DNA of 26,357 nt from Bacilli bacterium. Lineage in GTDB: Bacteria; Bacillota_I; Bacilli_A; RF39; UBA660. Where the stretch lies: positions 1 through 26,357 of the forward strand of contig JAZUAY010000171.1 of assembly GCA_045638205.1 (NCBI GenBank), given 5' to 3'. This document shows, piece after piece, positions 2,685-20,413 of this stretch (its first letter is position 1; the number at the start of each line of letters is the position of its first letter). The notes under the pieces were generated by a model, which was not told the DNA's origin, searched no databases, and worked only from the letters and a program-made list of their open reading frames with translations. The position numbers and the translations under genes were made by a program.

Positions 2685-2718
2685 AAGAAAGTATAATATA
2701 TTAAAAAGAGGCGATAAA

Positions 2719-3057: not shown

Positions 3058-3080
3058 TTTAGTTTTTAATTATTTATAGA

Positions 3081-3303
3081 AGGAGTAGATATAAATGAAT
3101 AATAATGAAAATGTTGCTAAAACCAATATCAACTGGTTGATATTGATTTAGTCTAAGTTTCATTCAAACTCCTATAAAATAAAGAAAAAACAAGTATATG
3201 CTTGTTACATAATTTAATAAAAATATATAGAAATAATTATAAAAATAACTAAAAAAGCATCAAAAATGGCATAGTATTTGATACTTGGTATTGACGGTTA
3301 AAG
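3081..3303 (+). repeat. Junction J1: rbgA 5' remnant (MNNNENVAKTNINW) + S1 + type-A leader + S2
   Basis: RBS aggag 3081, ATG 3095, TGG 3134-3136. S1 TTGATATTGATTTAGTCTAAG at 3137, S2 TTGGTATTGACGGTTAAAG at 3285. Confidence 0.9.
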
Positions 3304-3365
3304 AGGTGTAAGTATGAAAATATATGGTATAATATTAATTGTCAGATAAATGAAAGGATGATATT

Positions 3366-3614
3366 ATGAAGAGTGCTGAAGAATTTATGAATGAGTTTAT
3401 GAGTACTTTACATAACATGAAAAAGTATCAGCGAATAGACATTACTAGACCAGAAACATATTCCGGAGATTTTGATAAAGTTCATGATGCATTTGATATT
3501 GAAAAAAATGTAGTTGCTACAGTTAAAGCTGAAGAAATATCTAATGTTGTTGCAGATTCACCTAAATTATTAAGACTTACCAATAAAAAAAATAATTTAT
3601 CAATTGAATCGTAA
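3366..3614 (+). CDS. Hypothetical 82-aa protein (copy 1)
   Basis: ORF with RBS aaagga and upstream TGgTATAAT. Near-identical copy at 6273-6521 (2 aa differences). Confidence 0.7.
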   Translation: MKSAEEFMNEFMSTLHNMKKYQRIDITRPETYSGDFDKVHDAFDIEKNVVATVKAEEISNVVADSPKLLRLTNKKNNLSIES

Positions 3615-3633
3615 GATTAAGATATTGCGCTTT
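3606..3633. repeat. 28-bp 11-6-11 imperfect palindromic site (family 2)
   Basis: GAATCGTAAGA-TTAAGA-TATTGCGCTTT. It overlaps the stop codon of the 82-aa gene. Confidence 0.75.
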
Positions 3634-3747
3634 GCCATATTACCAGGCAATTCTTATGGCTAGCTTGTTGTTTATTTAGTCTAAGGTAAATAATTAATAT
3701 AAAATGGGACGAAACTATACTAAATTTCGCCTTTTTTATGCTATAAT
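3634..3747 (+). repeat. Cassette tail: inverted rbgA PGHMA half-site (X) + S3 + extended -10 promoter
   Basis: GCCATATTACCAGG at 3634 (reverse complement CCT GGT AAT ATG GC). S3 TTGTTGTTTATTTAGTCTAAG at 3665. GCCTTTTTTATGCTATAAT at 3729-3747. Confidence 0.85.
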
Positions 3748-3757
3748 TGAATAGAAA

Positions 3758-3975
3758 TGGAGTGATTCCTATGAATAATAAAACTAATATAAATTGCTTG
3801 AGCATGATTTATCTAACCCCTTTAACAAATCCTTATAAAATAAGGGAAAATTGATAATTTGATCTTACATCTTTTATATAAAAAGTAAGTAAAAATGTAC
3901 AAAAAACACCAAAAATCATTAAAAATGGAGCTTTTTTTATATATTTTTGATAAGGTGATGTTTCCCGCTAACCCC
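3758..3975 (+). repeat. Junction J2: rbgA 5' remnant (MNNKTNINC) + S1 + type-B leader + S2
   Basis: ATG 3771, TGC 3795-3797. S1 TTGAGCATGATTTATCTAACCCC at 3798, CCTTATAAAATAAGG box, S2 GTGATGTTTCCCGCTAACCCC at 3955. Confidence 0.9.
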
Positions 3976-4007
3976 ACCATAAAATAGGGATTTATAAAAT
4001 TATAAGT

Positions 4008-4035
4008 AAATCGTAAAATAGTAATATTACGATCT
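4008..4035. repeat. 28-bp 11-6-11 palindromic site (family 2) upstream of the ABC-F gene
   Basis: AAATCGTAAAA-TAGTAA-TATTACGATCT. The arms are 9/11 complementary. Confidence 0.75.
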
Positions 4036-4210
4036 TTTGTCAATATAAAAAATATAGTATAATATATATGACATATAAGTGCACAATTAATAATTCTACA
4101 TATAATTAAAGAAAGAGAAAAGTCAGTGAATTATATTTTTTAGCAATTGACAAATATTGAAAAATTTAAAATTTAATGATAGTATAAAAAACTAAATAAG
4201 AGGTGATAGC

Positions 4211-5704
4211 ATGTCAACAATAAGTGTAAGCAATCTTACATTTGGTTACGACGGGGGATACACTAACATCTTTGAAAACGTTTCATTTAATATAGATTCT
4301 AATTGGAAATTAGGATTTGTTGGAAGAAATGGTAGAGGTAAAACAACTTTTTTAAATTTATTACTAGGTAAATATGAATATCAAGGAACAATTAAATCGG
4401 ATTTGATATTTGATTATTTTCCATTTGAAATAAAAGATAAATCAAAAAATTCTTATGAAATAGCAGAAGAAATAGTACCGTATTTTGAAACTTGGAAATT
4501 AAATTGTGAGATTTCTCAATTAGGAATGGACTTAAGCATATTAGAAAGATCATTTGAAAATCTAAGTAAAGGAGAACAAACACGAGTTTTACTTGGATTG
4601 ATGTTTTCTAAAGATAATAACTTTTTACTTATAGATGAACCTACTAATCACTTAGATATTGAGGCAAGAAAAATTGTCGCTGATTATTTAAATAGTAAAA
4701 AAGGGTTTATTTTAGTTTCTCATGATAGGCGCTTTTTGGATAATTGCATAGATCATGTTTTATCCATTAATAAAACTAATATTGAAGTTCAAAAAGGGAA
4801 TTTTAGTTCATGGTGGGAGAATAAGCAAAGACAAGATAATTTTGAGTTAAATCAAAATGAAAAATTAAAAGGTGAAATATCTAGATTAGAAAAATCTGCT
4901 AGACAAACAGCAAATTGGTCTGATAAAGTAGAAAAAAGTAAATATAATATTAAACAAGGTGTTGTACCAGATAAAGGTTATATTGGACATAAAGCTGCTA
5001 AAATGATGAAAAGATCTTTAGTTGCACGCAATCATAAAGAAAAAGCAATTGAGGAAAAATCAAAATTATTAAAAAATATAGAAACAATGGAAGAACTAAA
5101 AATTAGTCCAACAATTTATAGGAGTAATAAACTGTTGGAAGTATCAAATCTTAGTGTTAATTATGGAGATAGAGATTTATTTGATAAAATTAGTTTTTCA
5201 GTAAATAGGGGAGATAGAATTGAACTAAAAGGAAAAAATGGTTCTGGAAAATCTAGTTTAATCAAATTGCTTTTAGGGCAAAAAATAAAGTACAATGGTG
5301 AACTGTATTTACCCAATGATTTAAAAATTTCATATGTTTCACAAGATACGTCTTATTTAAAAGGAAATTTAAAAGATTTTATAATGGATAATAATATAGA
5401 TGCCACATTATTTATGTCAATATTAAGAAAATTAGATTTTGATAGAAAAGAATTTGATAGAAATATTGAAAGTTATAGTGAAGGCCAAAAAAAGAAAGTA
5501 TTATTAGCTAAGAGCTTATCTGAACAGGCTGATTTATATGTATGGGATGAACCGTTAAATTATATAGATATTTATTCAAGACTACAGATTGAAAATTTAA
5601 TTTTAGATTATAATCCTACGATGATATTTGTGGAACATGATGAAACATTCTCAGATAAGATTGCAACAGATAAAATAGAGATAAAAAACACATCGCAATA
5701 TTAA
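4211..5704 (+). CDS. lsa: Lsa-family ABC-F ribosomal protection ATPase
   Basis: Two ABC domains (GRNGRGKTT, GKNGSGKSS; LLIDEPTNHLD, YVWDEPLNYID). The N-terminus (NIFENVSFNIDSNWKLGFVGRNGRGKTTFLNLLLGKY) and linker (DKGYIGHKAAKMMKR) closely resemble Lsa(E)/Lsa(B) as recalled. The allele cannot be assigned without a search. Confidence 0.8.
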   Translation: MSTISVSNLTFGYDGGYTNIFENVSFNIDSNWKLGFVGRNGRGKTTFLNLLLGKYEYQGTIKSDLIFDYFPFEIKDKSKNSYEIAEEIVPYFETWKLNCEISQLGMDLSILERSFENLSKGEQTRVLLGLMFSKDNNFLLIDEPTNHLDIEARKIVADYLNSKKGFILVSHDRRFLDNCIDHVLSINKTNIEVQKGNFSSWWENKQRQDNFELNQNEKLKGEISRLEKSARQTANWSDKVEKSKYNIKQGVVPDKGYIGHKAAKMMKRSLVARNHKEKAIEEKSKLLKNIETMEELKISPTIYRSNKLLEVSNLSVNYGDRDLFDKISFSVNRGDRIELKGKNGSGKSSLIKLLLGQKIKYNGELYLPNDLKISYVSQDTSYLKGNLKDFIMDNNIDATLFMSILRKLDFDRKEFDRNIESYSEGQKKKVLLAKSLSEQADLYVWDEPLNYIDIYSRLQIENLILDYNPTMIFVEHDETFSDKIATDKIEIKNTSQY

Positions 5705-5753
5705 GATATTAGGAATTGAGAAATCAGTTCCTTTTTTAGTAATCTTACGATGT
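5690..5753. repeat. 64-bp composite: family-2 half-sites in inverted orientation around a terminator-like hairpin
   Basis: ACATCGCAATA-TTAAGA...AGGAATTGA-GAAA-TCAGTTCCT-TTTTT...TAGTAA-TCTTACGATGT. It overlaps the ABC-F stop codon. Confidence 0.8.
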
Positions 5754-5801
5754 ATTAAAAAATAATAAAGTATGATATAATACCAATAGGTTGGTGATAT
5801 T

Positions 5802-6140
5802 ATGAAACATGAAATGAAATTAAATAATGGTCCTTTTATGAATATTAAAAATGGTACTAAGACAATTGAGTTAAGATTAAATGATGAGAAAAGGAAATTG
5901 TTAAAAATAAAAGATTTAATTGAATTTACTAATAGGGAAACATTGGAACAATTGTTAGTAGAAATAGAAAATCTATATCATTATCCTTCATTTGAAGAAT
6001 TATATAAACACTTTGATAAAGTTGCTATGGGATATAAGGAAGATGAAGAAGCTGATCCAAAAGACATGGAAGAATATTATTCAAAAGAAGAACAAGAAAA
6101 ATATGGAGTTTTAGGAATTGAAATAAAAAAAGTGAGATAA
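5802..6140 (+). CDS. ASCH/PUA-like domain protein (copy 2)
   Basis: 100/112 aa identical to 2719-3057 (counted by eye). Confidence 0.85.
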   Translation: MKHEMKLNNGPFMNIKNGTKTIELRLNDEKRKLLKIKDLIEFTNRETLEQLLVEIENLYHYPSFEELYKHFDKVAMGYKEDEEADPKDMEEYYSKEEQEKYGVLGIEIKKVR

Positions 6141-6211
6141 TCGTAAGATTAAGATATTCCAGTACATTAAGATGAGAAATTATCTCATCTTTTTTAGTAA
6201 TATTGCGATGT
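6138..6211. repeat. 74-bp composite: family-2 half-sites in inverted orientation around a terminator-like hairpin
   Basis: TAATCGTAAGA-TTAAGA...AAGATGAGA-AATTA-TCTCATCTT-TTT...TAGTAA-TATTGCGATGT. Confidence 0.8.
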
Positions 6212-6272
6212 AATTAAATAATGAAAATATATGGTATAATATTAATTGTCAGATAAATGAAAGGATGATATT

Positions 6273-6521
6273 ATGAAGAGTGCTGAAGAATTTATGAATG
6301 AGTTTATGAGTACTTTAGATAACATGAAAAAGTATCAGGGAATAGACATTACTAGACCAGAAACATATTCTGGAGATTTTGATAAAGTTCATGATGCATT
6401 TGACATTGAAAAAAATGTAGTTGCTACAGTTAAAGCTGAAGAAATATCTAATGTTGTTGCAGATTCACCTAAATTATTAAGACTTACCAATAAAAAAAAT
6501 AATTTATCAATTGAATCGTAA
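6273..6521 (+). CDS. Hypothetical 82-aa protein (copy 2)
   Basis: Part of a duplication of ~3315-3800 at ~6222-6707. Confidence 0.7.
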   Translation: MKSAEEFMNEFMSTLDNMKKYQGIDITRPETYSGDFDKVHDAFDIEKNVVATVKAEEISNVVADSPKLLRLTNKKNNLSIES

Positions 6522-6540
6522 GATTAAGATATTGCGATTT
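6513..6540. repeat. 28-bp 11-6-11 palindromic site (family 2)
   Basis: GAATCGTAAGA-TTAAGA-TATTGCGATTT, directly abutting X at 6541. Confidence 0.75.
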
Positions 6541-6654
6541 GCCATATGACCATGCAATTCTTATGGCTAGCTTGGTGTTTATTTAGTCTAAGGTAAATAA
6601 TTAATATAAAATGGGAGGAAACTATATAAAATTTCGTCTTTTTTATGCTATAAT
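6541..6654 (+). repeat. Cassette tail: X + S3 + extended -10 promoter
   Basis: GCCATATGACCATG at 6541. S3 TTGGTGTTTATTTAGTCTAAG at 6572. TGcTATAAT ending at 6654. Confidence 0.85.
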
Positions 6655-6664
6655 TGAATAGAAA

Positions 6665-6885
6665 TGGAGTGATTACTATGGATAATAAAACCAATATTAA
6701 CTGGTTGATTTCAATTTAATTAAGAGCACTCCTAAAACCATATAATATAAGGGAAAATGTAAAAATACATCTTACATGTTTTTAATAAAAATAGTTAAAA
6801 AATACTAAAAAATAGCAAAATAAGTTAAAAATAAGTAAATTTTTACTAAGAAGTTGCAAGGTGATTACAAAAGTTAAGAACATAT
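6665..6885 (+). repeat. Junction J3: rbgA 5' remnant (MDNKTNINW) + S1 + type-B leader + S2
   Basis: ATG 6678, TGG 6702-6704. S1 TTGATTTCAATTTAATTAAGAGCA at 6705, S2 GTGATTACAAAAGTTAAGAACA at 6861. Confidence 0.9.
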
Positions 6886-6902
6886 AAAGAAGAGGTGAAT
6901 TT

Positions 6903-7580: not shown

Positions 7581-7607
7581 AACTTTCTTTTTATTTATAA
7601 TTATTAA

Positions 7608-7723
7608 TTGGCCATATGACCTGGTGAGAATTTTAAAATAACTGATTACGCAATATTTAAGAACATATAAATGACATAAATTTAGACAAATTAGTACAAA
7701 ATCTGCCTTTTTTATGCTATAAT
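7608..7723 (+). repeat. Cassette tail: X + S3 + extended -10 promoter
   Basis: The reverse complement of 7608-7624 is CCAGGTCATATGGCCAA, a 16/17 match to rbgA 17654-17670. S3 TGATTACGCAATATTTAAGAACA at 7643. GCCTTTTTTATGCTATAAT at 7705-7723. Confidence 0.9.
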
Positions 7724-7756
7724 TTTAATGATTTTAAATCGAGAAAGTGATGTTAC

Positions 7757-8191
7757 ATGGAATTAAATGAATATATGAATCAAGATGTTTTTAATCCAAA
7801 ATATTTATTTCACGGAACAGCTCATGAAATAGATAAATTAGAATTAAGACAATCAACTGATAATGAAAATAAAGATAATGAAGACAATGCAATATTTTTA
7901 ACTAGTTCAATCTATACTGCAGCGGCTTATGCTTTTAGTAGACGATTGAAAGAACAAAATGAGAATTATTCATTTTCTATGAATAATAATGGAGAATTAC
8001 CAGCAATGGTATTTGAAGTAGAAAATTTACCAGATGATTTATGTGGTTATATTTATATTTTTGAAAAAAGTGAAGATATGATTAAAGATAATCACGAGTT
8101 CACAACTCAATATAGATGCTATCATGATTTAACACCACAAAAAGTTATTAAAGTTAATTATAGAGATTTTGAAGAATTTTTCAGCAGATAA
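7757..8191 (+). CDS. Hypothetical protein, possible ADP-ribosyltransferase-like fold
   Basis: YLFHGT...AIFLTSSIYTAAAYA resembles the H-G-T / Y(F)-x-T strands of ART-fold proteins. This is motif-level evidence only. Confidence 0.45.
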   Translation: MELNEYMNQDVFNPKYLFHGTAHEIDKLELRQSTDNENKDNEDNAIFLTSSIYTAAAYAFSRRLKEQNENYSFSMNNNGELPAMVFEVENLPDDLCGYIYIFEKSEDMIKDNHEFTTQYRCYHDLTPQKVIKVNYRDFEEFFSR

Positions 8192-8217
8192 AATTAAACT
8201 AAAAAAATATAGATTTA

Positions 8218-8385
8218 AAGGAGTTGATTCAAATGAATGAAAATAAAACTAATATAAACTGGTTGTAGTGATTAACATCTTTCATGTTATGATAAAATAT
8301 AGTTAAATTTAATAAAAAAAGATCAAAAATGATTAAAATATGTTAAATATTATGTAGGAATTAAGGTATTGATTACGATACAGTA
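8218..8385 (+). repeat. Junction J4: rbgA 5' remnant (MNENKTNINW) + shortened leader + S2
   Basis: AAGGAGTTGATTCAA-ATG 8233, TGG 8260-8262. The leader lacks ~50 bp including the CCTTAT box. S2 TTGATTACGATAC at 8369. Confidence 0.85.
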
Positions 8386-8412
8386 ACTAATTCGTGATGG
8401 GAGGAAATTATA

Positions 8413-8583
8413 GTGAATATAGTTGAAAAAGTGCAGTTTTTAAAGAATTATAAGAAAAATTTAGAAACAACTGCAAAACTTGTTGAAAGATTTAAATTAA
8501 AGGGCGATTTAACTCGTAGTATTGATGATACTATAGGGTATTTAGAAAAAGAAAAAATAAAAATTAAATATAAAGTAAAGTGA
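8413..8583 (+). CDS. Small hypothetical protein, 56 aa (MNIVEKVQFLKNYKKNLETTAKLVERFKLKGDLTRSIDDTIGYLEKEKIKIKYKVK)
   Basis: GTG start with GGAGG RBS. It fills the cargo slot between J4 and J5 and is below the ORF-track cutoff. Confidence 0.6.
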   Translation: MNIVEKVQFLKNYKKNLETTAKLVERFKLKGDLTRSIDDTIGYLEKEKIKIKYKVK

Positions 8584-8587
8584 AATT

Positions 8588-8811
8588 AAGGAGTTGATTC
8601 AAATGAATGAAAATAAAACTAATATAAATTGCTTGATTACGATTTATTTAACCCCTTTAAGAACTTCTTTATTTACAAGGCTTTGTGAGAATTAGCATCT
8701 TGCATGTTTTATATAAAAATATGTTAAATAGATAAAAATTAGTAAAAGATGACTATTTTTAGTTAAAAATGTTGTAGGAATTAATGAGGTGATTACACCT
8801 TTTAACCCCTA
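8588..8811 (+). repeat. Junction J5: rbgA 5' remnant (MNENKTNINC) + S1 + type-B leader + S2
   Basis: ATG 8603, TGC 8630-8632. S1 TTGATTACGATTTATTTAACCCCT at 8633, S2 GTGATTACACCTTTTAACCCCT at 8789. Confidence 0.9.
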
Positions 8812-8832
8812 GATAAAAATGAGGTGAAGTGT

Positions 8833-9405
8833 ATGTCCAAAATATCTAAAAATATTAAAATGCTAGATATATTATCATCTGGGAAAATATATAGTTGTAA
8901 GAAACTAGCAGAAATGTTAGAAGTTAGTCCAAGAACAGTTAGACAATATAAAGATGAATTAGAAAAAGAAGGATTATATATTGAAAACATAATGGGTAAA
9001 AATGGTGGATATAGACTTTGCTCTAAAGTTGAAATACCTTCTATTTTGTTTAATAAAAATGATATAGATAAAATTAATTCAATAATAGATAAATTATCCG
9101 ATGATGATAAAAATAAATTAGAGAATATTAAAGAAAAAATTAATACTTACTGTAGATTAGTAAGTGATAGAGATAACATAAATATTGAAGATAAAAATAA
9201 AATAGATATAATACAAAATGCAATTAATAATAAGAAAAAAATTACTATAGAATACTATAGTAAAGGAATTAAAAAATCAAGAGATATATTGCCAATTCAA
9301 ATATATGTATATGAAAATATGATTATGGTAGTTGTTCATTATTCGGATGATCCAAGTGACATAAGACATTTAAATTTAAAAAGAATCGAAAAAATAATTA
9401 TATAG
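8833..9405 (+). CDS. HTH (wHTH) + WYL domain transcriptional regulator, short form
   Basis: N-terminal LAEMLEVSPRTVRQYKDELEKEG...GKNGGYRL (YafY/PafB-type HTH). C-terminal AINNKKKITIEYYS...RDILP...IRHLNLKRIEKI (WYL). RBS gaggtg before ATG 8833. Confidence 0.8.
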   Translation: MSKISKNIKMLDILSSGKIYSCKKLAEMLEVSPRTVRQYKDELEKEGLYIENIMGKNGGYRLCSKVEIPSILFNKNDIDKINSIIDKLSDDDKNKLENIKEKINTYCRLVSDRDNINIEDKNKIDIIQNAINNKKKITIEYYSKGIKKSRDILPIQIYVYENMIMVVVHYSDDPSDIRHLNLKRIEKIII

Positions 9406-9551
9406 CAAAAGTACTTCCTACATTAGTGTTTATAATGAGTATAGAACATCTGGTAAAAGTCAATAGGTAATCGGCAGTTTTTTTGGAATAGTTTACTGCC
9501 TTATCAACAAAATTATTGCACACTAAAACGATTTTAGTATAAACTAAAATT

Positions 9552-9583
9552 ATTGATTCGCTATTTATAAATAGCGAATCAAT
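9552..9583. terminator. Perfect 32-bp palindrome at the transposase stop
   Basis: ATTGATTCGCTATTTA|TAAATAGCGAATCAAT. Confidence 0.65.
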
Positions 9584-10859
9584 CGTTCTTTGAATTTTGA
9601 ACCGAGTCAATTGGTTTGTAATATTGATTTTTTCGCAGCAATCCAAAAATCAATCTTGCAAGTTTACGAGCAGATAAAACGAGTGCACGTTTATGTTGAT
9701 GTTTAGAAACTTCCTTAAATTTAAGATCATAATAATCTTTAATAAAAGGAAAGTTTTGTCTAACACAAGAAGCAGTAGCTTCAACTAAATAATATCGTAA
9801 ATATTTATTAGACTTTTTAGAAGATTTCTTATCCTGAGAATCGAATTCTCCAGACTGATTTCTTTTCCAATAAAGTCCAGAATATTTAGCAATTTTTGAG
9901 TTATGAGGAAATCTTTCAATATTACCAATTTCAGCCATAATACCAGCAGCATAGACTTTACCAATACCACGAATAGAAAGTAAGATATTATAGGTATTGG
10001 AATCAAGTCCTAAAGCAGTTGATAAAATAGCTTTATCAATATTCTTAAGTTGTTTTTGATAAAATTTAATAGTATTTAAAGAAGAAGCAATGGCAATATT
10101 GATTGGTTCATAAGCAGTTTGATCTAATCTGTAAGAAGCATGCATGGCTTTATTTAAAGTAGTAATCTTATCATCTACATTAGAAATATGATTTTTACTT
10201 TTTTCAGAAATAAAGTTAATTAAATCTTCTACAGATGAAGATGCAATAACATCTGGAGATACAAATTCTTCTAGAAAAGCGGAAGATGTAGCACCAAATA
10301 GGTCAGAAAAAGGTATATCATTTTTGTTACAAGAAACTAATCCAGAAAAAGATAAATATAAATTAGTTAAAATATAAGTCTTTTCTTTTATTAAGTTTTT
10401 ACAAATATGATATCTTTGTCTAGTAAGACGTTGAAGTGCAATGTATTGAGAACCTTTAAATGGATATAAAGCTTTAGTTCTGCCGACTCTTCCATAGTCA
10501 GCAAGAATATAAGCATCAATACCATCTTCTTTTTCTAAATCATGAAAACTTTTCTTATATTTATCAAAATCACAAGCATTGATTTGATAAACTTCAGTAT
10601 GAAAATTATTTAAATATTCATTAGAAGAAAGATAACAAGCAGGATGAAAAGAATACATGCCAGTAGATTCCATAACAATGATAATTTTATCAAAGAATAA
10701 TGTATCTTCAATATCTTTAATTTTATTAATAACCATATCGTTTCCTTCTGGATTATTGGGAAACTTAAGGTTAAAATAAATATGTTGATCAAAATTCATA
10801 ACGCAAAACTGATTACCTTTAAGACCTACATCAACACCAATGAACAAAGAGTTTTGCAT
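9579..10859 (-). CDS. IS110-family (DEDD) transposase/recombinase
   Basis: N-terminal FIGVDVG and VMESTGMY (RuvC-like DEDD), KEDGIDA..LA. C-terminal SIRGIGKVYAAGIMAEIGNIERF...YSGL...QSG...SNKYLRYYLVEA. ATG 10859 has RBS aggtgg. Confidence 0.95.
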   Translation of the reverse strand: MQNSLFIGVDVGLKGNQFCVMNFDQHIYFNLKFPNNPEGNDMVINKIKDIEDTLFFDKIIIVMESTGMYSFHPACYLSSNEYLNNFHTEVYQINACDFDKYKKSFHDLEKEDGIDAYILADYGRVGRTKALYPFKGSQYIALQRLTRQRYHICKNLIKEKTYILTNLYLSFSGLVSCNKNDIPFSDLFGATSSAFLEEFVSPDVIASSSVEDLINFISEKSKNHISNVDDKITTLNKAMHASYRLDQTAYEPINIAIASSLNTIKFYQKQLKNIDKAILSTALGLDSNTYNILLSIRGIGKVYAAGIMAEIGNIERFPHNSKIAKYSGLYWKRNQSGEFDSQDKKSSKKSNKYLRYYLVEATASCVRQNFPFIKDYYDLKFKEVSKHQHKRALVLSARKLARLIFGLLRKNQYYKPIDSVQNSKND

Positions 10860-11250
10860 AAGTATCACCACCTTTCGATAAAATATTTTGTGAAACATAA
10901 TAAACTACAGATACCCTTGCTTAAAAGTTTGACAACAACCTCGTTATAAGAATACATCTTTTGTTTAAGGATAATGTGCTGCGATTAAACTTAAAAAGAG
11001 AAACATCATCTGAGTTAGAAGGATGATAACTCATAAGTAGGGAAACATTCTAAACTAGTAAACATCATAAAGAGTTACAGGAGGGTTAAGAATAGATCCT
11101 AGTTATTATATTTCAATAAAATATAATAACACAAGGGTAAAAATAATCCATAGTTTTTACTATTTTTACTTATAAAAATAGAATAAATAAAAATAGTTAA
11201 TATAAGTGAAAAAATCACTTACAAAAACTATTATACGAGGAGGTATTTTT

Positions 11251-11601
11251 ATGTTAGATTTAGATCATATTGCAATTACCGTAAAAGATTTGAATGAATC
11301 TATTGTTTTTTATAAAAAACTGGGTTATGAATTATTAGAAAGATTTAGTGATGATGAATATAATTGGGCTACATTAAAGTTAAATAACCATTCATTAGAA
11401 TTATTTCAAATAACAAATGATAAGGAAAAACCAATTAATCATATTGCATATAGCTATGATAGTGATGAAGAAGTACTAGATTTAATTAAGCAATTAGGTT
11501 ATAAGAAAGAAAACATAGATATATTTTATGGTGATTTAAATAGAAAGAGTTTCTTTATTGAAGATAAAAATGGTAAATCAATTCAATTAATAAAGAAGTA
11601 G
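11251..11601 (+). CDS. VOC/glyoxalase family protein
   Basis: LDHIAITVKDLNESIVFYKKLG...LELFQ...INHIAY...FFIEDKNGKSIQL. RBS gaggagg before ATG 11251. Confidence 0.85.
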   Translation: MLDLDHIAITVKDLNESIVFYKKLGYELLERFSDDEYNWATLKLNNHSLELFQITNDKEKPINHIAYSYDSDEEVLDLIKQLGYKKENIDIFYGDLNRKSFFIEDKNGKSIQLIKK

Positions 11602-11713
11602 CCATATGGCCAGGTAATGTTATGATAAAAATTGATTACACTTAATTTAACCTATAATAAATGACATAAATTTAGACAGATTAGTACAAAATCTGCCTTT
11701 TTTATGCTATAAT
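11600..11713 (+). repeat. Cassette tail: X + S3 + extended -10 promoter
   Basis: The reverse complement of 11600-11614 is CCT GGC CAT ATG GCT (PGHMA, fully synonymous with rbgA). S3 TGATTACACTTAATTTAACC at 11633. GCCTTTTTTATGCTATAAT at 11695-11713. Confidence 0.9.
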
Positions 11714-11729
11714 TTTATTAATTTTATAA

Positions 11730-11895
11730 AAGGAGTTGAGTGGGATGAACGAAAATAAAACAAATATCAATTGGTTGGCTTGTATTTATGACGCACATCA
11801 CTTAAACCCATATAAAATGGGAACTTTTAAGAAATGAGATCTTGCAAGTTTTAATAAAAAAAGTAGTAAAAAATGAAAAAATAGATTAAAAATTA
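11730..11895 (+). repeat. Junction J6: rbgA 5' remnant (MNENKTNINW) + S1 + leader truncated before S2
   Basis: ATG 11745, TGG 11772-11774, CCCATATAAAATGGG box, GATCTTGCAAG box. The leader then runs into a BRO fragment. Confidence 0.85.
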
Positions 11896-11901
11896 CTCAT
11901 T

Positions 11902-12171
11902 GAAATAAGAAGTATTTGGAATTCTGAAAAAGAAGAATATTATTTTAGTGTAGTTGATGTTATTGCTGCATTAACTGATAATGATTATGATAAATCTAGA
12001 AATTATTGGAAATGGTTAAAAACTAGACTAAAAGATGAAGGCAGTGAATTGGTTAGTGATACTAACCAGTTGAAAATGAAAGCTAAAGATGGAAAAATGA
12101 GAGAGACAGATACTCTTGATACAGAAGGAATATTTAGATTAATAGAATCTGTTCCATCCAGTAAAGCGGAA
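11902..12171 (+). pseudogene. BRO-N domain fragment lacking a start
   Basis: EIRSIWNSEKEEYYFSVVDVIAALTD...RNYWKWLKTRLKDEGSE...LKMKAKDGKMRETD...RLIESVPSSKAE. Homologous to the N-half of 19507-20205. Confidence 0.85.
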
Positions 12172-12473
12172 GTGTTTTGTATAAAATGACATTGAATAAA
12201 AATATACAAGATATACTTTATTTTAAAGGAATTGTTGATTTTTATAAAGATTATGTAAAACTAGATATTACTGATAAAAAAGATAATCAAAACAATTGGA
12301 ATGTTATAGTATCAGTTTTAAGATAATCAAAGTGTCGTGTTCTTGTAATCATATAATTCGATAAATAAGTATGATTGTAAAAGTAAAAATATTAATTTTG
12401 ATTAGTTGCAACGTAAGGTATGTTTAATTACATATCTTTTTTTGTTGTGTAAAAAAGAAAGGAGAAATGATAT

Positions 12474-12821
12474 ATGGAATTAAATTATGCAATATTTAGA
12501 AGTGAACCTATTATGACTATACCTGATTTAGCACAAATAGGATCACATAATAAAAGGGAAAAGAAAGTGTATCAATCAAATAAAGATATTAAAATAGAAT
12601 TAAGTAAAAACAACATAGAACTTGTTCCTTTAAATGTTAAATATGTAAAAGGTTTTGATGAACTAACTAAAGAATATAAAAAAGAACACGAAGAAAGAAT
12701 GAAAACTGAACGAGCTGATAGAAAGAAAAGATACCATGAAATGTTAAATAGTTCTAAAAATGTTGTTGCTGATGAATTAGTTATGACTGCTTCACATAAT
12801 TTCTTGCTAGGTGAAATTTGA
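12474..12821 (+). pseudogene. Truncated MobV/Pre (Mob_Pre) relaxase N-terminus
   Basis: YAIFR...SHNKR...SNKDIKIELSKNNIELV...VVADELVMTAS resembles MOBV motifs I and II. It ends before the HxDExxPHxH motif. Confidence 0.65.
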
Positions 12822-12846
12822 CATTCATGCCTTTTTATGCTAGAAT
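12818..12846 (+). promoter_or_regulatory. Sigma70-type promoter related to the cassette-tail promoter
   Basis: TTGACA-17 bp-TAGAAT with a TG extension. The spacer GCCTTTTTATGC resembles the tail promoter. Confidence 0.6.
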
Positions 12847-12909
12847 ATAAGCCAATTTCAGCGAGAAGTATGTATTACTTAAATTATTATTTTCAATAAA
12901 TTATGGGGG

Positions 12910-13650
12910 TTGATTATAATGAAAAAGAATAAAAATATTGAAATGCGTATATATGAATTATTAGGGGTTAAAGTTTTTAGAAAAATGGCATTTGGTTTGC
13001 GTGATATATTAGCATTTCCATTAACTATTAGAATGAGTAAAGAAGAGAGACATAACTTTCTATATAATAGAGAAGGTAATTATAATTTAGGAAAAGTAAA
13101 AAGTTTAGAGGACGTTAAAAAATTTAAAAAACAATTGTTTATAAATTCAGGTATTCATGTATGGGCATTATCAGTTTGCCTTCCTAACTTTTTAAAAGTA
13201 ATTGGTGGTACTGCATCTTTATCTACAGCTATAATAACTTTAACTTGTATAGGTATAAATCTATACTGTATTATGCTACAAAGATATAATGGTATTAGAA
13301 TTACTCAACTTATTGAAAAAATGACTCCAAGATATGAAAGACAAAAAGATGCAATTAAAGAAGAACTAAGAAAAGAAGATTCATTACTTTTAGAACATAC
13401 ATATAAAATTGTAGATAAAAAAGAAAGAGAAACTAGTATAACTTTTGATGATTTAATTGCTAATGCTAATATTGAGCAACTTAAACAATATCGTGAGTAT
13501 TTAGCACATTTTCAAAATATTAATCAATTAATACAAGAAAATGATATCTCTGCTGAACATCAAGTAGTTGTAAGTATGCCAATGGAAAAACATAAAACAC
13601 TTAAATTGGAATTAAAACCTAATAAACATAACAACGGTGCTATTAATTAG
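12910..13650 (+). CDS. Membrane protein, possibly CrtO-like (glycosyl-4,4'-diaponeurosporenoate acyltransferase family)
   Basis: YELLGVKVFRKM...IHVWAL, a hydrophobic segment, then INLYCIMLQRYNGIRI. Motif recall only; the start codon is uncertain. Confidence 0.45.
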   Translation: MIIMKKNKNIEMRIYELLGVKVFRKMAFGLRDILAFPLTIRMSKEERHNFLYNREGNYNLGKVKSLEDVKKFKKQLFINSGIHVWALSVCLPNFLKVIGGTASLSTAIITLTCIGINLYCIMLQRYNGIRITQLIEKMTPRYERQKDAIKEELRKEDSLLLEHTYKIVDKKERETSITFDDLIANANIEQLKQYREYLAHFQNINQLIQENDISAEHQVVVSMPMEKHKTLKLELKPNKHNNGAIN

Positions 13651-13726
13651 CACTTTTGTTTTATAAAAAACTTATTTGATGACAAATAAGTAACACACTA
13701 CCAAGTCGGCATTTTGCCAACTAGGA

Positions 13727-14287
13727 TTGTGTGCCAAAGGAGAGCCTTTTAAGATGTGGTTAGCATCATTAGGTAAAGAAAGAATTGATGAGGTATTTGA
13801 TCCTGAAATAGCAGTTAATAGGGCTGTAGAATATTATCGCAAAAGAGGTTATGATGATAAATGGATTAAATCAAGATTAACTGGGATAGTTGATAGATTT
13901 AAATTAACTGATGTATGGAAAGAATCTGGAATTACAAAAGATTATGAATATGGAATTTTAACTAATGAAATATATAAATCATGGTCAGGAATGAAGGCAA
14001 GTGAATATAAAGCATACAAAGGTCTTAGAAAAGAATCATTAAGAGATAATATGACAGATATTGAAGTTGCATTAACGGATTTGGGTGAAATAGCAACAAG
14101 AGAACTAGCAAAAGAACATAAACCATATGGATTAGAACAAAATAAAAGAATAGCACGACGAGGTGGTAATATAGCAAAAATAACTAGAGATAATTTAGAA
14201 AAAGAATTAGGTAGAACTGTAATCAGTAATAAGAATTCATTAAATTATGAATATATAGATGAAAAATTATTAGAAGAAAAGAATTAG
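13727..14287 (+). pseudogene. BRO-family gene, C-terminal half
   Basis: KGEPFKMWLASLGKERIDEVFDPEIAV...KESLRDNMTDIEVALTDLGEIATRELAK. Homologous to the C-half of 19507-20357. The N-half is absent here. Confidence 0.85.
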
Positions 14288-14289
14288 AT

Positions 14290-14344
14290 AAATAACATAA
14301 ATTTAGACAGATTAGTACAAAATCTGCCTTTTTTATGCTATAAT
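14290..14344 (+). repeat. Partial cassette tail (promoter part only; no X or S3)
   Basis: AAATAACATAAATTTAGACAGATTAGTACAAAATCTGCCTTTTTTATGCTATAAT matches the tails at 7670-7723 and 11660-11713. Confidence 0.85.
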
Positions 14345-14359
14345 TTTAATGATTTTAAA

Positions 14360-14582
14360 AAGGAGTTGATCCAAATGAACGAAGAAAAAGGGTTAAATAA
14401 AACCGTAATCAACTGGTTGGTATTGATTTAGTCAAAGTATTTGAGAAGCTCCTATAAAATAAGGATTAAACAAGTATAAGCTTGTTACATAATATAATAA
14501 AAATATATAAAATAATGATAAAAATAGCTAAAAAAGTATCAAAAATAACATACTATTTGATACTTGGTATTGACGGTTAAAC
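14360..14582 (+). repeat. Junction J7: rbgA 5' remnant (MNEEKGLNKTVINW) + S1 + type-A leader + S2
   Basis: ATG 14375, TGG 14414-14416. S1 TTGGTATTGATTTAGTCAAAG at 14417, S2 TTGGTATTGACGGTTAAAC at 14564. Confidence 0.9.
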
Positions 14583-14605
14583 TTTTAAAAAACGAGGTGA
14601 TTTAT

Positions 14606-15184
14606 ATGAGTAAGATAGCAATTGATATTGATAATACAATTTGTAATACAAGTGATTTCTTTGGACCAATCGCAGAGAACTATGATAGAAATGTATTGCA
14701 TAAAAATAATGATATTAATTATGATAAAACAGTTCCTAGAAGTGATAATTGGACAAAAGAAGAACTTGCTTATTTTGTAGAAAACTATTTTAATAAAGAA
14801 GCTATAAATATTCCTATTAAAAAAGATGCTGTTATTTACATTAACAAACTTAAAGAATTAGGATTTGAAATAGTATTCATTACAAATAGAGGAATTAAAG
14901 AAGATGATCATTCTGATTTAATAGTTCCTGAATATTTAGAAAAAAATAATATTCCTTATGATAGTATAATTACTAAATCAAATGATAAATATATGTATTT
15001 AGAGGACTGTGCTTATTTTATAGATGATGCAATTCGTAATTGCGAACAAGCATTAGAAAAATCAAATGTTAAAGTAATCATGATGAGAACAAATAAAACA
15101 AAGAATTATGTTAATGAAGATATTTTAATAGTTAATAGCTGGGAAGAAATATATAACTATATAAAGCAATATAAAAGGAGGTAA
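14606..15184 (+). CDS. HAD-superfamily hydrolase (5'-nucleotidase-like)
   Basis: IAIDIDNTI (DxDxT), FITNRG, FIDDA. RBS gaggtg before ATG 14606. Confidence 0.8.
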   Translation: MSKIAIDIDNTICNTSDFFGPIAENYDRNVLHKNNDINYDKTVPRSDNWTKEELAYFVENYFNKEAINIPIKKDAVIYINKLKELGFEIVFITNRGIKEDDHSDLIVPEYLEKNNIPYDSIITKSNDKYMYLEDCAYFIDDAIRNCEQALEKSNVKVIMMRTNKTKNYVNEDILIVNSWEEIYNYIKQYKRR

Positions 15185-15245
15185 TAATCATGAACGATAA
15201 TAAAACTAGTATAAACTGGTTGATTATGACAGTTAAGAACATTGT
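15177..15245 (+). repeat. Junction J8: rbgA 5' remnant (MNDNKTSINW) with collapsed leader (S1/S2 hybrid)
   Basis: ATG 15190, TGG 15217-15219, then TTGATTATGACAGTTAAGAACATT running straight into the cargo RBS. Confidence 0.85.
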
Positions 15246-15263
15246 AAAAATGAGGTGGTCATA

Positions 15264-15806
15264 ATGGAAAATCTTGGTTTAGAAAGAGGATATTTAGAAT
15301 TACATGATTATAGAAAAGATTATCCTTCGATTTATGAAAAGGCAAAAGAAGAATTGTTAGATATTTATAAAGATAGAATTAAATATATTGACCATGTTGG
15401 GAGTACTAGTATAAAAGGAATTAAATCTAAACCTATTATTGATATCAATATTCAAACAGATGATTTAGATGATTTTAAAGAGTATACTGAATCTACTGTT
15501 GAGGGTGACATTTATACTGTAAAAAAAGAACCAACTTTAGGTGGAGATTATTTAATTAGAAAAGAAGAAGATGGAAAAGTAAAAGCATTTATACATGTCT
15601 ATAAAACTGGTGATATGAATGGCATAACTTCGATTATGTTTAGGGATTATATGAATTCACATGAAGATGAAGCGAAAAGATATGAAGCTTTAAAAATGGA
15701 ATTATATGATAAGTATAAGGATAACAGAAAAGAATATACACATGGAAAAGATAAGTATATTAAAGAAATAATAGCATTAGCCATGAAAGAAAAAAATAAA
15801 ATTTAG
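15264..15806 (+). CDS. GrpB-family nucleotidyltransferase-fold protein
   Basis: IDHVGSTSIKGIKSKPIIDINI...FRDYMNSH...YEALKMEL...YTHGKDKYI. Confidence 0.85.
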   Translation: MENLGLERGYLELHDYRKDYPSIYEKAKEELLDIYKDRIKYIDHVGSTSIKGIKSKPIIDINIQTDDLDDFKEYTESTVEGDIYTVKKEPTLGGDYLIRKEEDGKVKAFIHVYKTGDMNGITSIMFRDYMNSHEDEAKRYEALKMELYDKYKDNRKEYTHGKDKYIKEIIALAMKEKNKI

Positions 15807-15834
15807 GACATTGTAATTCTTTACTACTATATTT

Positions 15835-15948
15835 AGCCATATGACCATGCAACTAATTTAAAAAATTTGATTACATAATATTTAAGAACATATAATTGTT
15901 ATAAAATTAGACAGATTAGTACAAAAACTGCCTTTTTTATGCTATAAT
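15835..15948 (+). repeat. Cassette tail: X + S3 + extended -10 promoter
   Basis: GCCATATGACCATG at 15836. S3 TGATTACATAATATTTAAGAACA at 15868. GCCTTTTTTATGCTATAAT at 15930-15948. Confidence 0.9.
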
Positions 15949-15964
15949 TTTAATGATTTTAAAA

Positions 15965-16187
15965 AAGAGTTGATCCAAATGAATGAAAATAAAACAAATA
16001 TAAATTGGTTGATAACAATTTAGTCAAGACTACTCCTAAATCCTTATAAAATAAGGGGAAACTGAAAAATAGGTCTTGCATGTTTATGTCAAAATATATT
16101 AAAAATTGATGAAAATAAGTTAAAAAAGAGTAATTTTAAGTAAAAATTGCCTAGGAATTAATATAGTGAGAACTGATAGTCAAGACC
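15965..16187 (+). repeat. Junction J9: rbgA 5' remnant (MNENKTNINW) + S1 + type-B leader + S2
   Basis: ATG 15979, TGG 16006-16008. S1 TTGATAACAATTTAGTCAAGAC at 16009, S2 GTGAGAACTGATAGTCAAGAC at 16166. Confidence 0.9.
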
Positions 16188-16209
16188 AGCAAAAAAAGAG
16201 GTGATTATT

Positions 16210-16668
16210 TTGAAACGTAGTGCAGGTATTTTAGTTTATAAAATTGAGAAAAATGATATAAAAGTCTTACTTTGTCATTTTGGTGGACCATATTGGGAAA
16301 ATACTGATATTGGTGGATGGACTCTTTCAAAAGGTGAGGTTAGTAAAGGCGAAAAAGTATTAGAAACTGCGAAGAGAGAATTTATAGAGGAAACAAATTT
16401 AAATTTAACTGCTCCGATTGATTATCTTGGAACAAAGAAAATTAGTAGAAAAAAGTTAGCAATAATGTTTTATACTAATTCTGATTTTGAACTTTCTAAT
16501 TGTAAAAGTAATACTTTTGAACTTGAATTTCCAAAAGGTTCTGGTAATATAAAGTCATTTCCTGAAATGGATAAATATGAATGGATGAATCTTAATGATG
16601 CTAAGAAAAAAATAATAAAAAATCAGTTGTATTTTTTAAATAAATTAGAAGAAAAAATAGCCAGGTAA
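16210..16668 (+). CDS. NUDIX hydrolase
   Basis: SAGILVYK...HFGGPYW...GGWTLSKGEVSKGEKVLETAKREFIEETN. TTG start at 16210 after RBS agaggtg. Confidence 0.85.
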   Translation: MKRSAGILVYKIEKNDIKVLLCHFGGPYWENTDIGGWTLSKGEVSKGEKVLETAKREFIEETNLNLTAPIDYLGTKKISRKKLAIMFYTNSDFELSNCKSNTFELEFPKGSGNIKSFPEMDKYEWMNLNDAKKKIIKNQLYFLNKLEEKIAR

Positions 16669-16876
16669 TACTCATGAATGAAAATAAAACTAATATAAAC
16701 TGGTTGATTACGATTTATCCAAGAATAGTAGAAAACCTATATAAAATAAGGAATTGTGAGATATAACATCTTGCACGTTTTATATAAAAATATGTTAAAA
16801 CACGCAAAAATTAGTAAAAAATGGACATTTTTGATGTAAAAAGTGGTAGGAATTATGAAGGTGATTTCGCCACCTA
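16660..16876 (+). repeat. Junction J10: rbgA 5' remnant (MNENKTNINW) + S1 + type-B leader + S2
   Basis: ATG 16674, TGG 16701-16703. S1 TTGATTACGATTTATCCAAG at 16704, S2 GTGATTTCG at 16861. Confidence 0.9.
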
Positions 16877-16911
16877 ATAATAAGAAATAATTTGAATACG
16901 GAGGTGATACT

Positions 16912-20357: not shown

Positions 20358-20413
20358 GTATATTTTTTATTTACAGGAAAATAACAAAATTATTGTTTAA
20401 TTGAAAATCATTA

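Follow-up and report, generated by a model that had tools for sequence, protein, structure and literature searches.

The value of large serine recombinases for genome engineering comes from their short sites, which need nothing else. To our knowledge, accessory docking sites for the recombinase are not known among these enzymes. The arm sites of the lambda family are unlike the core sites in sequence and are read by a separate N-terminal domain, and site II of the Sin resolvase is made of direct-repeat half-sites. In serine integrases, the C-terminal part of the protein contacts all 25 bp in a half-site of attP, with the zinc-ribbon motif covering 9 bp and the linker permitting different spacings between the motifs (PMC3783163).

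The locus described here is a stretch of 26,357 nucleotides (“the window”; contig JAZUAY010000171.1 of the Bacilli assembly GCA_045638205.1), in which small gene cassettes are stacked in tandem in front of the essential gene rbgA. Each cassette carries up to three same-direction copies, called S1, S2 and S3, of a 24-base sequence adjoining the recombination point.

The cassette array

The units have a median length of 934 bp and mostly contain one gene. Cargo types include NUDIX, glyoxalase, ASCH and GNAT-like proteins, and an ABC-F resistance-type gene is also among the cargo of this gene-capture system. The newest cassette is the one adjoining rbgA. A larger set of 213 distinct cassette heads came from about 80 gut and rumen Bacilli assemblies. 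In public sequencing runs, at most 24% of the sampled sequence words were present.

Linkage to the S type changes across a TG dinucleotide alone. Position −3 is uninformative on the downstream S type and position 0 is informative, while the tail allele of a cassette is linked to the S type of that same cassette. These two polymorphic positions bracket the exchange point, and the only sequence both common to the two sides and unlinked is TG. By linkage mapping, the unit boundary thus lies within TG, and the cassette start abuts a putative 2-bp crossover, as a half-site of a large serine recombinase does. In their sequence, the junctions behave like large-serine-recombinase sites.

S1 starts 2 nt past the junction with a type-specific block of 7 nt, followed by an A/T-rich middle (ATTTA) and then by a type-specific block of 9–10 nt that ends about 26 nt from TG. 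S2 and S3 repeat, in the same orientation, the two S1 blocks only, and the parts of S1 that are constant over all types (TTG, ATTTA) are precisely those missing from S2 and S3. S1 is followed in the cassette head by a small hairpin, a promoter-like leader and S2, which lies just 5′ of the ribosome-binding site (RBS) of the cargo. The optional tail contains an inverted rbgA-body motif, S3, a terminator, an extended −10 promoter, an RBS and the rbgA start, in that order.

The placement and spacing of S1, S2 and S3 had been given in the preliminary description of the window and hold there, with four exceptions (11776, 8264, 15221 and 6573; Table 1). The S3 copy at 6573 matches the cassette after J1 and not its own S1, because 6221–6520 is a 99% copy of 3314–3613. 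The S3 at 7643 is followed by another gene and no junction; the terminator and TGCTATAAT promoter downstream of it here drive another ORF (7757–8191). The S1-to-S2 spacings given earlier, 156–157 and 147–148, were reproduced (in window order, 148, 157, 156, 156, 147, 157 and 157 nt), and the distance from S3 to the next junction, given as 129–139 nt, was found to be 132 or 141–142 nt, a difference due to the choice of anchor only.

Table 1. Junctions, S copies and rbgA in the window. S2 distances run from start of S1 to start of S2, and S3 distances from start of S3 to the end of the next TGG/TGC.
Feature	Position	Strand	Sequence	Remarks
Junctions, end of TGG/TGC	3136, 3797, 6704, 8262, 8632, 11774, 14416, 15219, 16008, 16703			then rbgA itself at 17650
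S1, cassette after junction 3136	3138–3161	+	TGATATTGATTTAGTCTAAG...	family A type
S2, cassette after junction 3136	3286–3303	+		148 nt after S1; directly 5′ of RBS of 82-aa ORF
S3, cassette after junction 3136	3666–3689	+		31 nt past inverted rbgA-body motif (3631–3650); 132 nt before next junction
S1, composite cassette 3799–6705	3799–3822	+	TGAGCATG...CTAACCCC type	preceding codon TGC in place of TGG
S2, composite cassette 3799–6705	3956–3977	+	TGATGTTTCCCGCTAACCCC	157 nt after S1
S3-type copy, composite cassette 3799–6705	6573–6596	+		part of duplicated 82-aa-ORF module; type of the J1 cassette; 132 nt before next junction
S1	6706–6729	+	TGATTTCAATTTAATTAAGAGCAC	
S2	6862–6883	+	TGATTACAAAAGTTAAGAACAT	156 nt after S1 at 6706
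S3	7643–7666	+	TGATTACGCAATATTTAAGAACAT	31 nt after CCATATG at 7612
S2-type site, short unit 8264–8633	8370–8391	+	TGATTACGATACAGTAACTAAT	S1 of unit broken
S1	8634–8657	+	TGATTACGATTTATTTAACCCCTT	
S2	8790–8811	+	TGATTACACCTTTTAACCCCTA	156 nt after S1 at 8634; 16/17 block positions identical
S3	11633–11656	+	TGATTACACTTAATTTAACCTATA	142 nt before next junction
S1	11776–11799	+	TGGCTTGTATTTATGACGCACATC	family C type; cassette without S2 or S3
S1	14418–14441	+		family A; after junction with divergent rbgA start copy
S2	14565–14586	+	TGGTATTGACGGTTAAACTTTT	147 nt after S1 at 14418
Single hybrid S with S2-type middle	15221–15244	+		directly 5′ of GrpB RBS; leader missing
S3, GrpB cassette	15868–15893	+	TGATTACATAATATTTAAGAACAT	141 nt before next junction
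S1	16010–16033	+	TGATAACAATTTAGTCAAGACTAC	
S2	16167–16189	+	TGAGAACTGATAGTCAAGACCAG	157 nt after S1 at 16010
S1	16705–16728	+	TGATTACGATTTATCCAAGAATAG	
S2	16862–16883	+	TGATTTCGCCACCTAATAATAA	157 nt after S1 at 16705
rbgA	17621–18493	+		putative exchange dinucleotide: TG of Trp codon 10, 17648–17649

Covariation and constraint

The covariation of S1, S2 and S3 within each cassette, first noticed in the window, was borne out in the 213 heads, where S2 and S3 are closest to their own S1. A cassette's own S1 scores above the S1 of other types against its S2 region, for the 5′ block and the 3′ block each separately (permutation p ≤ 5e-5, with one random representative for each of the 43 S1 types), although such p-values overstate independence because the cassettes are related by descent. 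The covariation signal is carried by about 15–20 clearly different S types. S3, which was located independently of S1 as the sequence 31 nt after the CCATATG motif, also matches its own S1 better than the S1 of other cassettes (n = 22, permutation p ≤ 5e-5). Among 93 aligned heads, the strongest covariation between columns is that of S1 with S2, including one pair with a normalised mutual information of 1.0. The possibility that S2 and S3 are no closer to their own S1 and that the spacing is not conserved was checked on this larger set and did not occur, and the permutation tests rule out a chance origin of the likeness. In leader family A, S2 is almost constant while the 3′ block of S1 varies.

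The S1-to-S2 distance peaks at 156–157 (75/127 scored heads) and 145–147 (22/127). The spacing classes are about 10 nt apart on both sides, at 147 or 157 nt from S1 to S2 and 133 or 143 nt from S3 to S1. Within types, the S2 blocks have a diversity of 0.05–0.07, about fourfold lower than the spacer of S2 (0.23) and the leader (0.25), a comparison that is partly biased because the S2 sites were chosen by block similarity. Judging from these comparisons, the S repeats are under constraint. The gap between the blocks is 7 nt in S1 and S3 and 5–6 nt in S2, and the shorter gap of S2 speaks against selected contiguous homology and in favour of a reader with two parts.

The same cargo (90–99% identical at the protein level) is found behind different heads, with homology beginning at the RBS just past S2. 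S2 is therefore part of the backbone and not of the cargo. Leaderless heads make up 19/213, the tail is missing in about 86% of complete cassettes, and tailless minimal cassettes with just one S are common, so S2 and S3 are dispensable for persistence in arrays.

At no locus was a leader end found joined to an S1-type site and a second leader, as nested insertion at S2 would produce, and S2 as a secondary insertion site was rejected. By this comparison of loci, S2 and S3 are not points of crossover or insertion. The left flank of S2 does not read as a degenerate rbgA arm either, with 7–8/19 matches, no better than expected from A/T richness. None of the 93 aligned heads has a leader segment, guide-like or as a complementary partner, that co-varies with S, so RNA pairing inside the leader is unlikely; there was also no Rfam match to an RNA family at E ≤ 1.

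The recombinases

Five related assemblies have genes for large serine recombinases directly upstream of rbgA. These genes encode proteins of 411–566 aa with Resolvase, Recombinase and Zn_ribbon_recom domains, and in two cases (G041 and G045) they form a tandem pair (566 + 522 aa). The recombinases at the rbgA end (G005, L102, and the G041 and G045 pairs) occupy the right end of elements starting with S1, leader and S2, and the copies in L069, L167 and L171 are internal. At the rbgA end of elements only large serine recombinases were found, and at no array examined was there a tyrosine integrase. The window itself contains no recombinase of either class, serine or tyrosine, and its 94%-complete assembly has no close homologue of the rbgA-targeting enzymes, the best matches being 25–30% identical and located on other contigs. 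Leader-like DNA outside the window contig is negligible.

Three recombinase lineages pair with three groups of 3′ blocks. However, two elements with identical S1, leader and S2 encode recombinases whose DNA-binding regions are just 47% identical, and two recombinases with 95% identical DNA-binding regions sit behind different 5′ blocks. A link between S type and recombinase lineage at the clade level, with these counter-examples, is suggestive on sequence grounds. In the five full-length examples, too small a sample to decide, S1 and the recombinase DNA-binding region do not correlate (Mantel r = −0.2, p = 0.59). The idea that the S types reflect several cognate recombinase specificities thus finds weak support in the three lineages, against which stand the counter-examples and the single arrays in which at least eight S types occur alongside no more than one recombinase locus at rbgA.

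Two other sources of mobility were considered. A pair of scans of viral contigs for a phage origin of the recombinase-bearing elements gave chance matches only. An IS110-family transposase (9579–10898) was rejected as the mobiliser of the cassettes, as it occurs once, inserted within one cassette, and is missing from arrays elsewhere.

What the repeats may be

The explanation that fits best, to which we give a probability of about 40%, is that S2 and S3 provide the recombinase with accessory binding sites and are not arm sites of the lambda type. The array would be built by large serine recombinases, with DNA exchange at TG in codon 10 (Trp) of rbgA, and each cassette would begin with S1 and end with its own RBS and the first ten rbgA codons. 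S1 would be the element-side (P′) half of the recombination site, extending about 25 nt from TG, and its size and layout fit those expected if one recombinase subunit reads it with recombinase domain, linker and zinc-ribbon domain. Tail and head would join in the excised circle into one non-coding backbone of ~300 bp with the crossover midway, bounded by S3 at about −133/−143 and S2 at about +147/+157, and the cargo between S2 and S3 would be the swappable part. S2 and S3 would dock the same DNA-binding domains that read S1. They would lie on both sides of the crossover in the circle only, integration splitting them between the left and right junctions, and so might bias the reaction or help cassettes without an integrase to capture a recombinase made elsewhere. 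Such a bias would matter because substrate and product are alike at the core sites: the cassette has the rbgA arm as its left arm, and integration recreates the same two site types.

Several observations sit poorly with accessory sites. Canonical serine integrases need no auxiliary DNA (PMC3783163), TTG and ATTTA are absent from S2 and S3 despite being constant in S1, cassettes persist in arrays without S2 and S3, the match between S type and DNA-binding region breaks down in both directions (47% and 95% identity), and this genome lacks a close homologue of the rbgA-targeting recombinases. A more far-reaching version is rather unlikely as a whole. It would have large serine recombinases with accessory copies of the P′ half-site, about one extra helical turn apart according to backbone family, forming an arm-like complex by which direction or efficiency is set and no directionality factor is needed, with a recognition code between variants of the DNA-binding domain and the two S blocks, and with many cassette families, orthogonal to one another, able to share a single site on the chromosome within an essential gene.

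It is also possible, if somewhat unlikely, that the S copies have no binding role and are repeats at module boundaries. In that case leader and tail would be former “promoter units” or mobile ones, each made up of S, hairpin or terminator, promoter and RBS, that joined cargo through recombination at S or duplication of S, with short-homology events deleting or restoring modules, and S1, S2 and S3 would be alike because they are copies of one site. Leader and tail indeed read as built in parallel, the end of the leader (AGGAATTGAT or AGTATTTGATAC) resembling the RBS of the tail (AGGAGTTGATCC) as if the junction had lost the rbgA mini-ORF. There are leaderless versions of the same cassette, with the joint in the 3′ block (L054 compared with L093) or in the 5′ block (15221 in the window), and true S1/S2 hybrids in 4/123 leadered heads. 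However, one-time copies would diverge; instead, both blocks are kept while the spacer drifts, and the gap of S2 is consistently 1–2 nt shorter than that of S1 over many types, two features that also led us to reject a transposable module with target-site duplication. Wholly different block pairs, changed jointly in S1 and S2, occur with leader cores that are up to 90% identical, no recombinase-type insertion is seen at S2, and the same architecture would need a separate origin in at least 15 types.

Cis-regulation of the cargo, with S1, S2 and S3 as targets of one type-specific regulator or antisense RNA, appears improbable. S2 does lie at a fixed place, 8–12 nt before the RBS in what would be the 5′ untranslated region, and S3 follows the stop codon. 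A conserved extended −10-like TGTTAAAAT can be read in the leaders about 65 nt upstream of S2, and the family A leaders contain a promoter-like site on the minus strand (3263–3236 and 14542–14515), although, as read, a transcript from the latter would stop at the hairpin short of S1. The one-gene cassettes encode no regulator, S2 moves with the backbone and not with the cargo that it would regulate, and the lack of a co-varying complementary segment and of an Rfam match speaks against an RNA. Far less credible still is a literal lambda-like complex attP, with true arm-type sites and a tyrosine integrase as their reader. The repeats do lie on both sides of the core at 130–160 bp, and streptococcal conjugative elements with tyrosine integrases target the 5′ end of rbgA (PMC4701971). 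However, the arrays examined have serine recombinases and no tyrosine integrase, linkage shifts over 2 nt and not over a 6–8 bp overlap, and S2 and S3 resemble the core-adjacent sequence, as arm sites do not. Of the complex attP put forward in the preliminary description, the flanking geometry in the circle and its splitting upon integration are retained, while the analogy to arm-type sites falls with the serine enzymes, the change of linkage across TG alone and the copying of the core half-site by S2 and S3.

If S2 and S3 are accessory sites, a site framed by extra copies of its half-site would be a new layer of control for large serine recombinases, especially where the core sites cannot separate integration from excision, and the system could be a source of recombinases and sites in orthogonal pairs. 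The repeats mark the limits of a swappable backbone in a widespread, undescribed gene-capture system of gut and rumen Bacilli, and even as mere scars of modules they show how heads, cargo and tails get reshuffled.

Comparison with known systems

S1 resembles the P′ half-site in the attP of canonical large serine integrases (A118/LI, Bxb1, phiC31) in extending ~25 bp from a 2-bp crossover and in its two-part motif around an A/T-rich linker region (PMC3783163). However, a canonical attP is 40–50 bp long without auxiliary sequences, whereas the rbgA system has the conserved half-site copies S2 and S3. In the rbgA cassettes, moreover, the element and bacterial sites have the same left arm, and the target is therefore restored by integration.

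Like the arm-type sites of lambda, the predicted binding sites of the rbgA cassettes would flank the core at about 100–150 bp and be split between attL and attR upon integration, giving directionality. The enzymes belong to the tyrosine class in lambda, and in the rbgA cassettes S2 and S3 contain both blocks of the core-adjacent S1. The res accessory sites II and III of the Tn3, gamma-delta and Sin resolvases are extra copies of the binding motif near the crossover that build a regulatory complex, a role to which S2 and S3 can be compared by sequence likeness. However, these are dimer sites for small resolvases with a C-terminal helix-turn-helix, within about 90–120 bp and on one side, whereas the rbgA cassettes have large enzymes (411–566 aa, Recombinase and zinc-ribbon domains) and single half-site-like motifs 133–157 bp away on both sides.

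Integrons (attC × attI, IntI) likewise form arrays in one orientation of mostly promoterless single-gene cassettes at a fixed site, with similar types of cargo. Unlike them, the rbgA arrays have no attC hairpin or tyrosine IntI, their repeats are direct and not inverted, and the newest cassette lies beside rbgA. The large tyrosine-integrase elements at rbgA have in common with the cassettes the targeted gene end, the preservation of the protein N-terminus and accretion, but they have direct repeats of 12–54 bp, no miniature cassette arrays and no S1/S2/S3 architecture.

The SCC, SCCmec and pseudo-SCC islands at rlmH, moved by the Ccr large serine recombinases, differ in using the 3′ end of their target gene rather than the 5′ end, and the rbgA units are mostly of one gene, with a median of 934 bp. 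We know of no description of internal extra copies of the element-side half-site in SCC. Both systems stack in tandem at one conserved gene end, with many units lacking a recombinase, and both have large serine recombinases, sometimes as a tandem pair (in the rbgA system, G041 and G045). In both, direct repeats mark every junction because each element brings a copy of the gene end.

The cassette array upstream of rbgA

The window, an entire 26.4-kb contig of a fragmented 1.24-Mb metagenome-assembled genome with 25% G+C, repeats the first ten codons of rbgA and the preceding ribosome-binding site (RBS) at least ten times upstream of rbgA, with every copy on the + strand. The copies are separated by cassettes of one or a few genes, whose cargo includes NUDIX, ASCH, ABC-F, peptidase, WYL regulator, glyoxalase, HAD, GrpB and glutamine amidotransferase proteins. 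The ABC-F protein, in a composite cassette, is a two-domain ATPase of the ribosome-protection resistance kind. The window cassettes contain no recombinase gene except an IS110-family transposase (DEDD_Tnp_IS110 plus Transposase_20), inserted between genes for a WYL-domain regulator and a glyoxalase, with a perfect palindrome (14-bp stem) at its 3' side. An ASCH gene and an 82-aa ORF are each present twice (87% and 99% identity). The second copy lacks the intergenic junction, S1 repeat and leader and has in their place a short segment containing 20-nt repeats, AATCGTAAGATTAAGATATT. A Bro-N-domain gene lies downstream of rnhB, and fragments of it recur in two parts within a cassette at 77–85% identity.

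One genome per species was scanned with a sequence pattern; 118 stretches resulted, and 80 loci were retrieved, from uncultured gut and rumen Bacilli variously labelled Erysipelotrichaceae, Acholeplasmatales or Mycoplasmatota. Many carry arrays, with up to 17 junctions per contig. They yielded 213 distinct cassette heads, a sample of repeat types narrowed by the requirement for TTGA or TTGG after the junction and drawn from metagenome assemblies, where repeats favor mis-joins.

Recombinases and the point of exchange

Several related elements at rbgA encode large serine recombinases. At locus G005, the gene immediately upstream of rbgA encodes a 411-aa protein with Resolvase, Recombinase and zinc-ribbon domains; it stands at the right end of a 6-kb element opening with S1, leader and S2. 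L102 is arranged in the same way, and similar elements lie inside arrays at L069, L167 and L171. At G041 and G045, tandem large serine recombinases (566 and 522 aa) adjoin rbgA and end an element of about 38 kb; the left end of this element has an S1 type of its own and closes off the cassette array. At L102 and L092, N-terminal pieces of the 411-aa enzyme occur just before junctions carrying an rbgA-start allele (...KVF.K..INW) that is seen beside intact recombinases, so some cassettes may have arisen by decay of elements with a recombinase. The genome of the window lacks close homologues of these enzymes, and its array is either served in trans or at present immobile.

Polymorphisms at the junctions delimit the unit. 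The last base of the Asn codon, position -3 (entropy 0.96), shows no linkage to the S type that follows; position 0, the third base at the Trp codon position (G or C), is linked to it. A cassette's S type is also weakly linked to the rbgA-start allele that the cassette carries at its own end. The cassette thus runs from just after one TG through the next, and the exchangeable common stretch is 2 nt, as expected of a serine recombinase.

Three co-varying repeats

With a few exceptions, each junction in the window is followed immediately by an intact repeat, S1. Cassettes with a leader have a second copy, S2, at 147–148 or 156–157 nt, and those with a promoter-bearing tail have a third, S3, 132 or 141–142 nt ahead of the next junction. 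The preliminary description, whose quoted repeat sequences are all present in the window, had proposed that the three co-vary within each cassette at fixed distances. The larger set bears this out. Among the 213 heads, the distance from S1 to the best S2 of its own type peaks at 156–157 and 145–147 nt. The S2 region fits its own S1 better than that of other types (p <= 5e-5 by permutation, each of 43 S1 types being represented by one randomly drawn head), as do the 7-nt 5' block and the 10-nt 3' block when each is scored alone. S3 was located independently of S1: in 18 of 19 tails of related loci it lies 31 nt 3' of the sequence CCATATG, and S3 so located also fits its own S1 better than others (n = 22, p <= 5e-5). 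In an alignment of 93 heads, the highest column covariation pairs S1 with S2, and no leader segment other than S2 tracks the S type. The observation is therefore real and general, with an effective sample of 15–20 clearly distinct S types because the cassettes are related.

S1 reaches about 26 nt from the TG and consists of GT or CT, a 7-nt block, an A/T-rich middle and a 9–10-nt block, with ATTTA in the middle kept in all types. Its size and layout agree with the attP half-site of serine integrases, in which the recombinase domain, linker and zinc-ribbon domain contact 25 bp, 9 bp of which form the zinc-ribbon motif (PMC3783163). S2 and S3 are copies of both blocks without the middle. The blocks stand 7 nt apart in S1 and S3, and 5–6 nt apart in S2. 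Within types, the S2 blocks vary by 0.05–0.07 against 0.23 for the S2 spacer and 0.25 for the leader, a comparison somewhat biased by choosing S2 for block similarity. S2 and S3 were rejected as crossover sites: they lack the TG that precedes S1, and no cassette was found inserted at S2 in the loci surveyed.

Modular heads and tails

The same cargo protein (90–99% identical) is found behind heads of another S type, or even another leader family. Because the shared homology starts at the RBS, a few bases after S2, S1, leader and S2 form one module with S2 as its right edge. A leader is missing from 19 of the 213 heads, which contain only one S. In one pair, the same cassette in a form with and a form lacking its leader, the joint falls within the 3' block, and in the GrpB cassette of the window within the 5' block; clear S1/S2 hybrids number four among 123 leadered heads. 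On the minus strand, family A leaders have a good promoter-like sequence (TTGATG or TTGATA, 16 nt, TATAAT or TATCAT); since it faces a hairpin and T run of the same strand, an antisense RNA of about 50 nt is possible.

The tail, found in about one-seventh of cassettes, comprises an inverted copy of a stretch of rbgA, then S3, a hairpin terminator, a promoter of the extended -10 type (TGCTATAAT), an RBS and the rbgA start. The inverted motif copies the rbgA sequence just downstream of the crossover (GCCATATGnCCnGG), and the CCATATG that precedes S3 in related loci is part of it. The hairpin is AGACAGATT...AATCTGCC plus a T run that merges into TGCTATAAT. Terminator and promoter would insulate rbgA from cassette transcription and supply its own promoter. 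In an excised circle, tail and head would be contiguous, with S3 and S2 bounding a non-coding backbone that has the crossover inside and the cargo outside.

Coordinates of features in the window and, where a locus is named, in related assemblies
Feature	Location	Strand	Remark
rbgA	17621-18493		
Inverted rbgA motif	3631-3650, 6538-6557, 7610-7625, 11599-11616, 15833-15852		
Tail terminator hairpin and promoter	11674-11711, 14305-14342, 7684-7722, 15909-15947		
Family A promoter-like site	3263-3236, 14542-14515	-	
IS110-family transposase	9579-10898	-	inside cassette 8634-11775
Palindrome hairpin	9552-9583		
ABC-F ATPase	4211-5704		
ASCH gene and 82-aa ORF	2710-3613, 5793-6520		
20-nt repeats	3607, 6139, 6514		
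Bro-N-domain gene	19507-20205		
Bro-N fragments	11902-11980, 13736-14293		in cassette 11776-14416; match 19552-19630, 19807-20363
Recombinase, L069	1462-2715	-	
Recombinase, L102	6329-7564	+	
Recombinase fragments	L102:1078-1218, L092:3093-3224		

Possible function of S2 and S3

The preliminary description likened the repeats to arm-type sites of a complex attP and took their cassette-specific sequence to imply several cognate recombinase or directionality-factor specificities. At the level of clades, a link between S type and recombinase is suggestive: the 3' block is of the AACCCC kind in each of five elements of the 411-aa clade, AGAAAC or AAGAAC in a second clade (two elements, L051 and L046) and GCAACA in the tandem-pair elements. 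There are counter-examples, however. L102 and L069 have identical S1, leader and S2, yet the DNA-binding regions of their recombinases are 47% identical; L167 and L171 have DNA-binding regions 95% identical and different 5' blocks. The link is loose. The L069 and L102 recombinases share 91% identity in the catalytic domain and 43–51% in the recombinase and zinc-ribbon domains, a mosaic that points to domain swapping.

Our favored reading, to which we give a probability of about 0.4, is that S2 and S3 serve as accessory docking sites for the recombinase DNA-binding domains. They copy both half-site parts that such domains would read, the unequal block gap argues against selection for plain homology, and the offset between spacing classes is close to a helical turn. 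Moreover, the left arm of a cassette is the same as the rbgA arm, so that integration would regenerate both site types and direction could not come from the core alone; S2 and S3, which would flank the crossover in the circle but not after integration, could provide it. Against docking stand the loose link to recombinase lineage, the existence of minimal cassettes without S2 and S3, and the absence from S2 and S3 of the universally conserved parts of S1. Canonical serine integrases also need no auxiliary DNA (PMC3783163).

The main rival, which we consider rather unlikely, regards leader and tail as promoter units joined to cargo units at S; the repeats would then be boundary copies kept through short-homology events and common descent. 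In its favor are the similar construction of leader and tail and the resemblance of the leader end to an RBS. Against it are the constant shortening of S2 and the fact that, where leader cores are nearly identical, S1 and S2 have had both blocks replaced in concert.

Relation to known systems

Streptococcal conjugative elements that target rbgA use tyrosine integrases (PMC4701971). SCC composite islands are stacked elements that lack a recombinase of their own and depend on large serine recombinases. In the literature searched, the S1/S2/S3 build was found for neither. The present analysis adds the co-variation of all three repeats, their two-block structure and the proposed backbone model.
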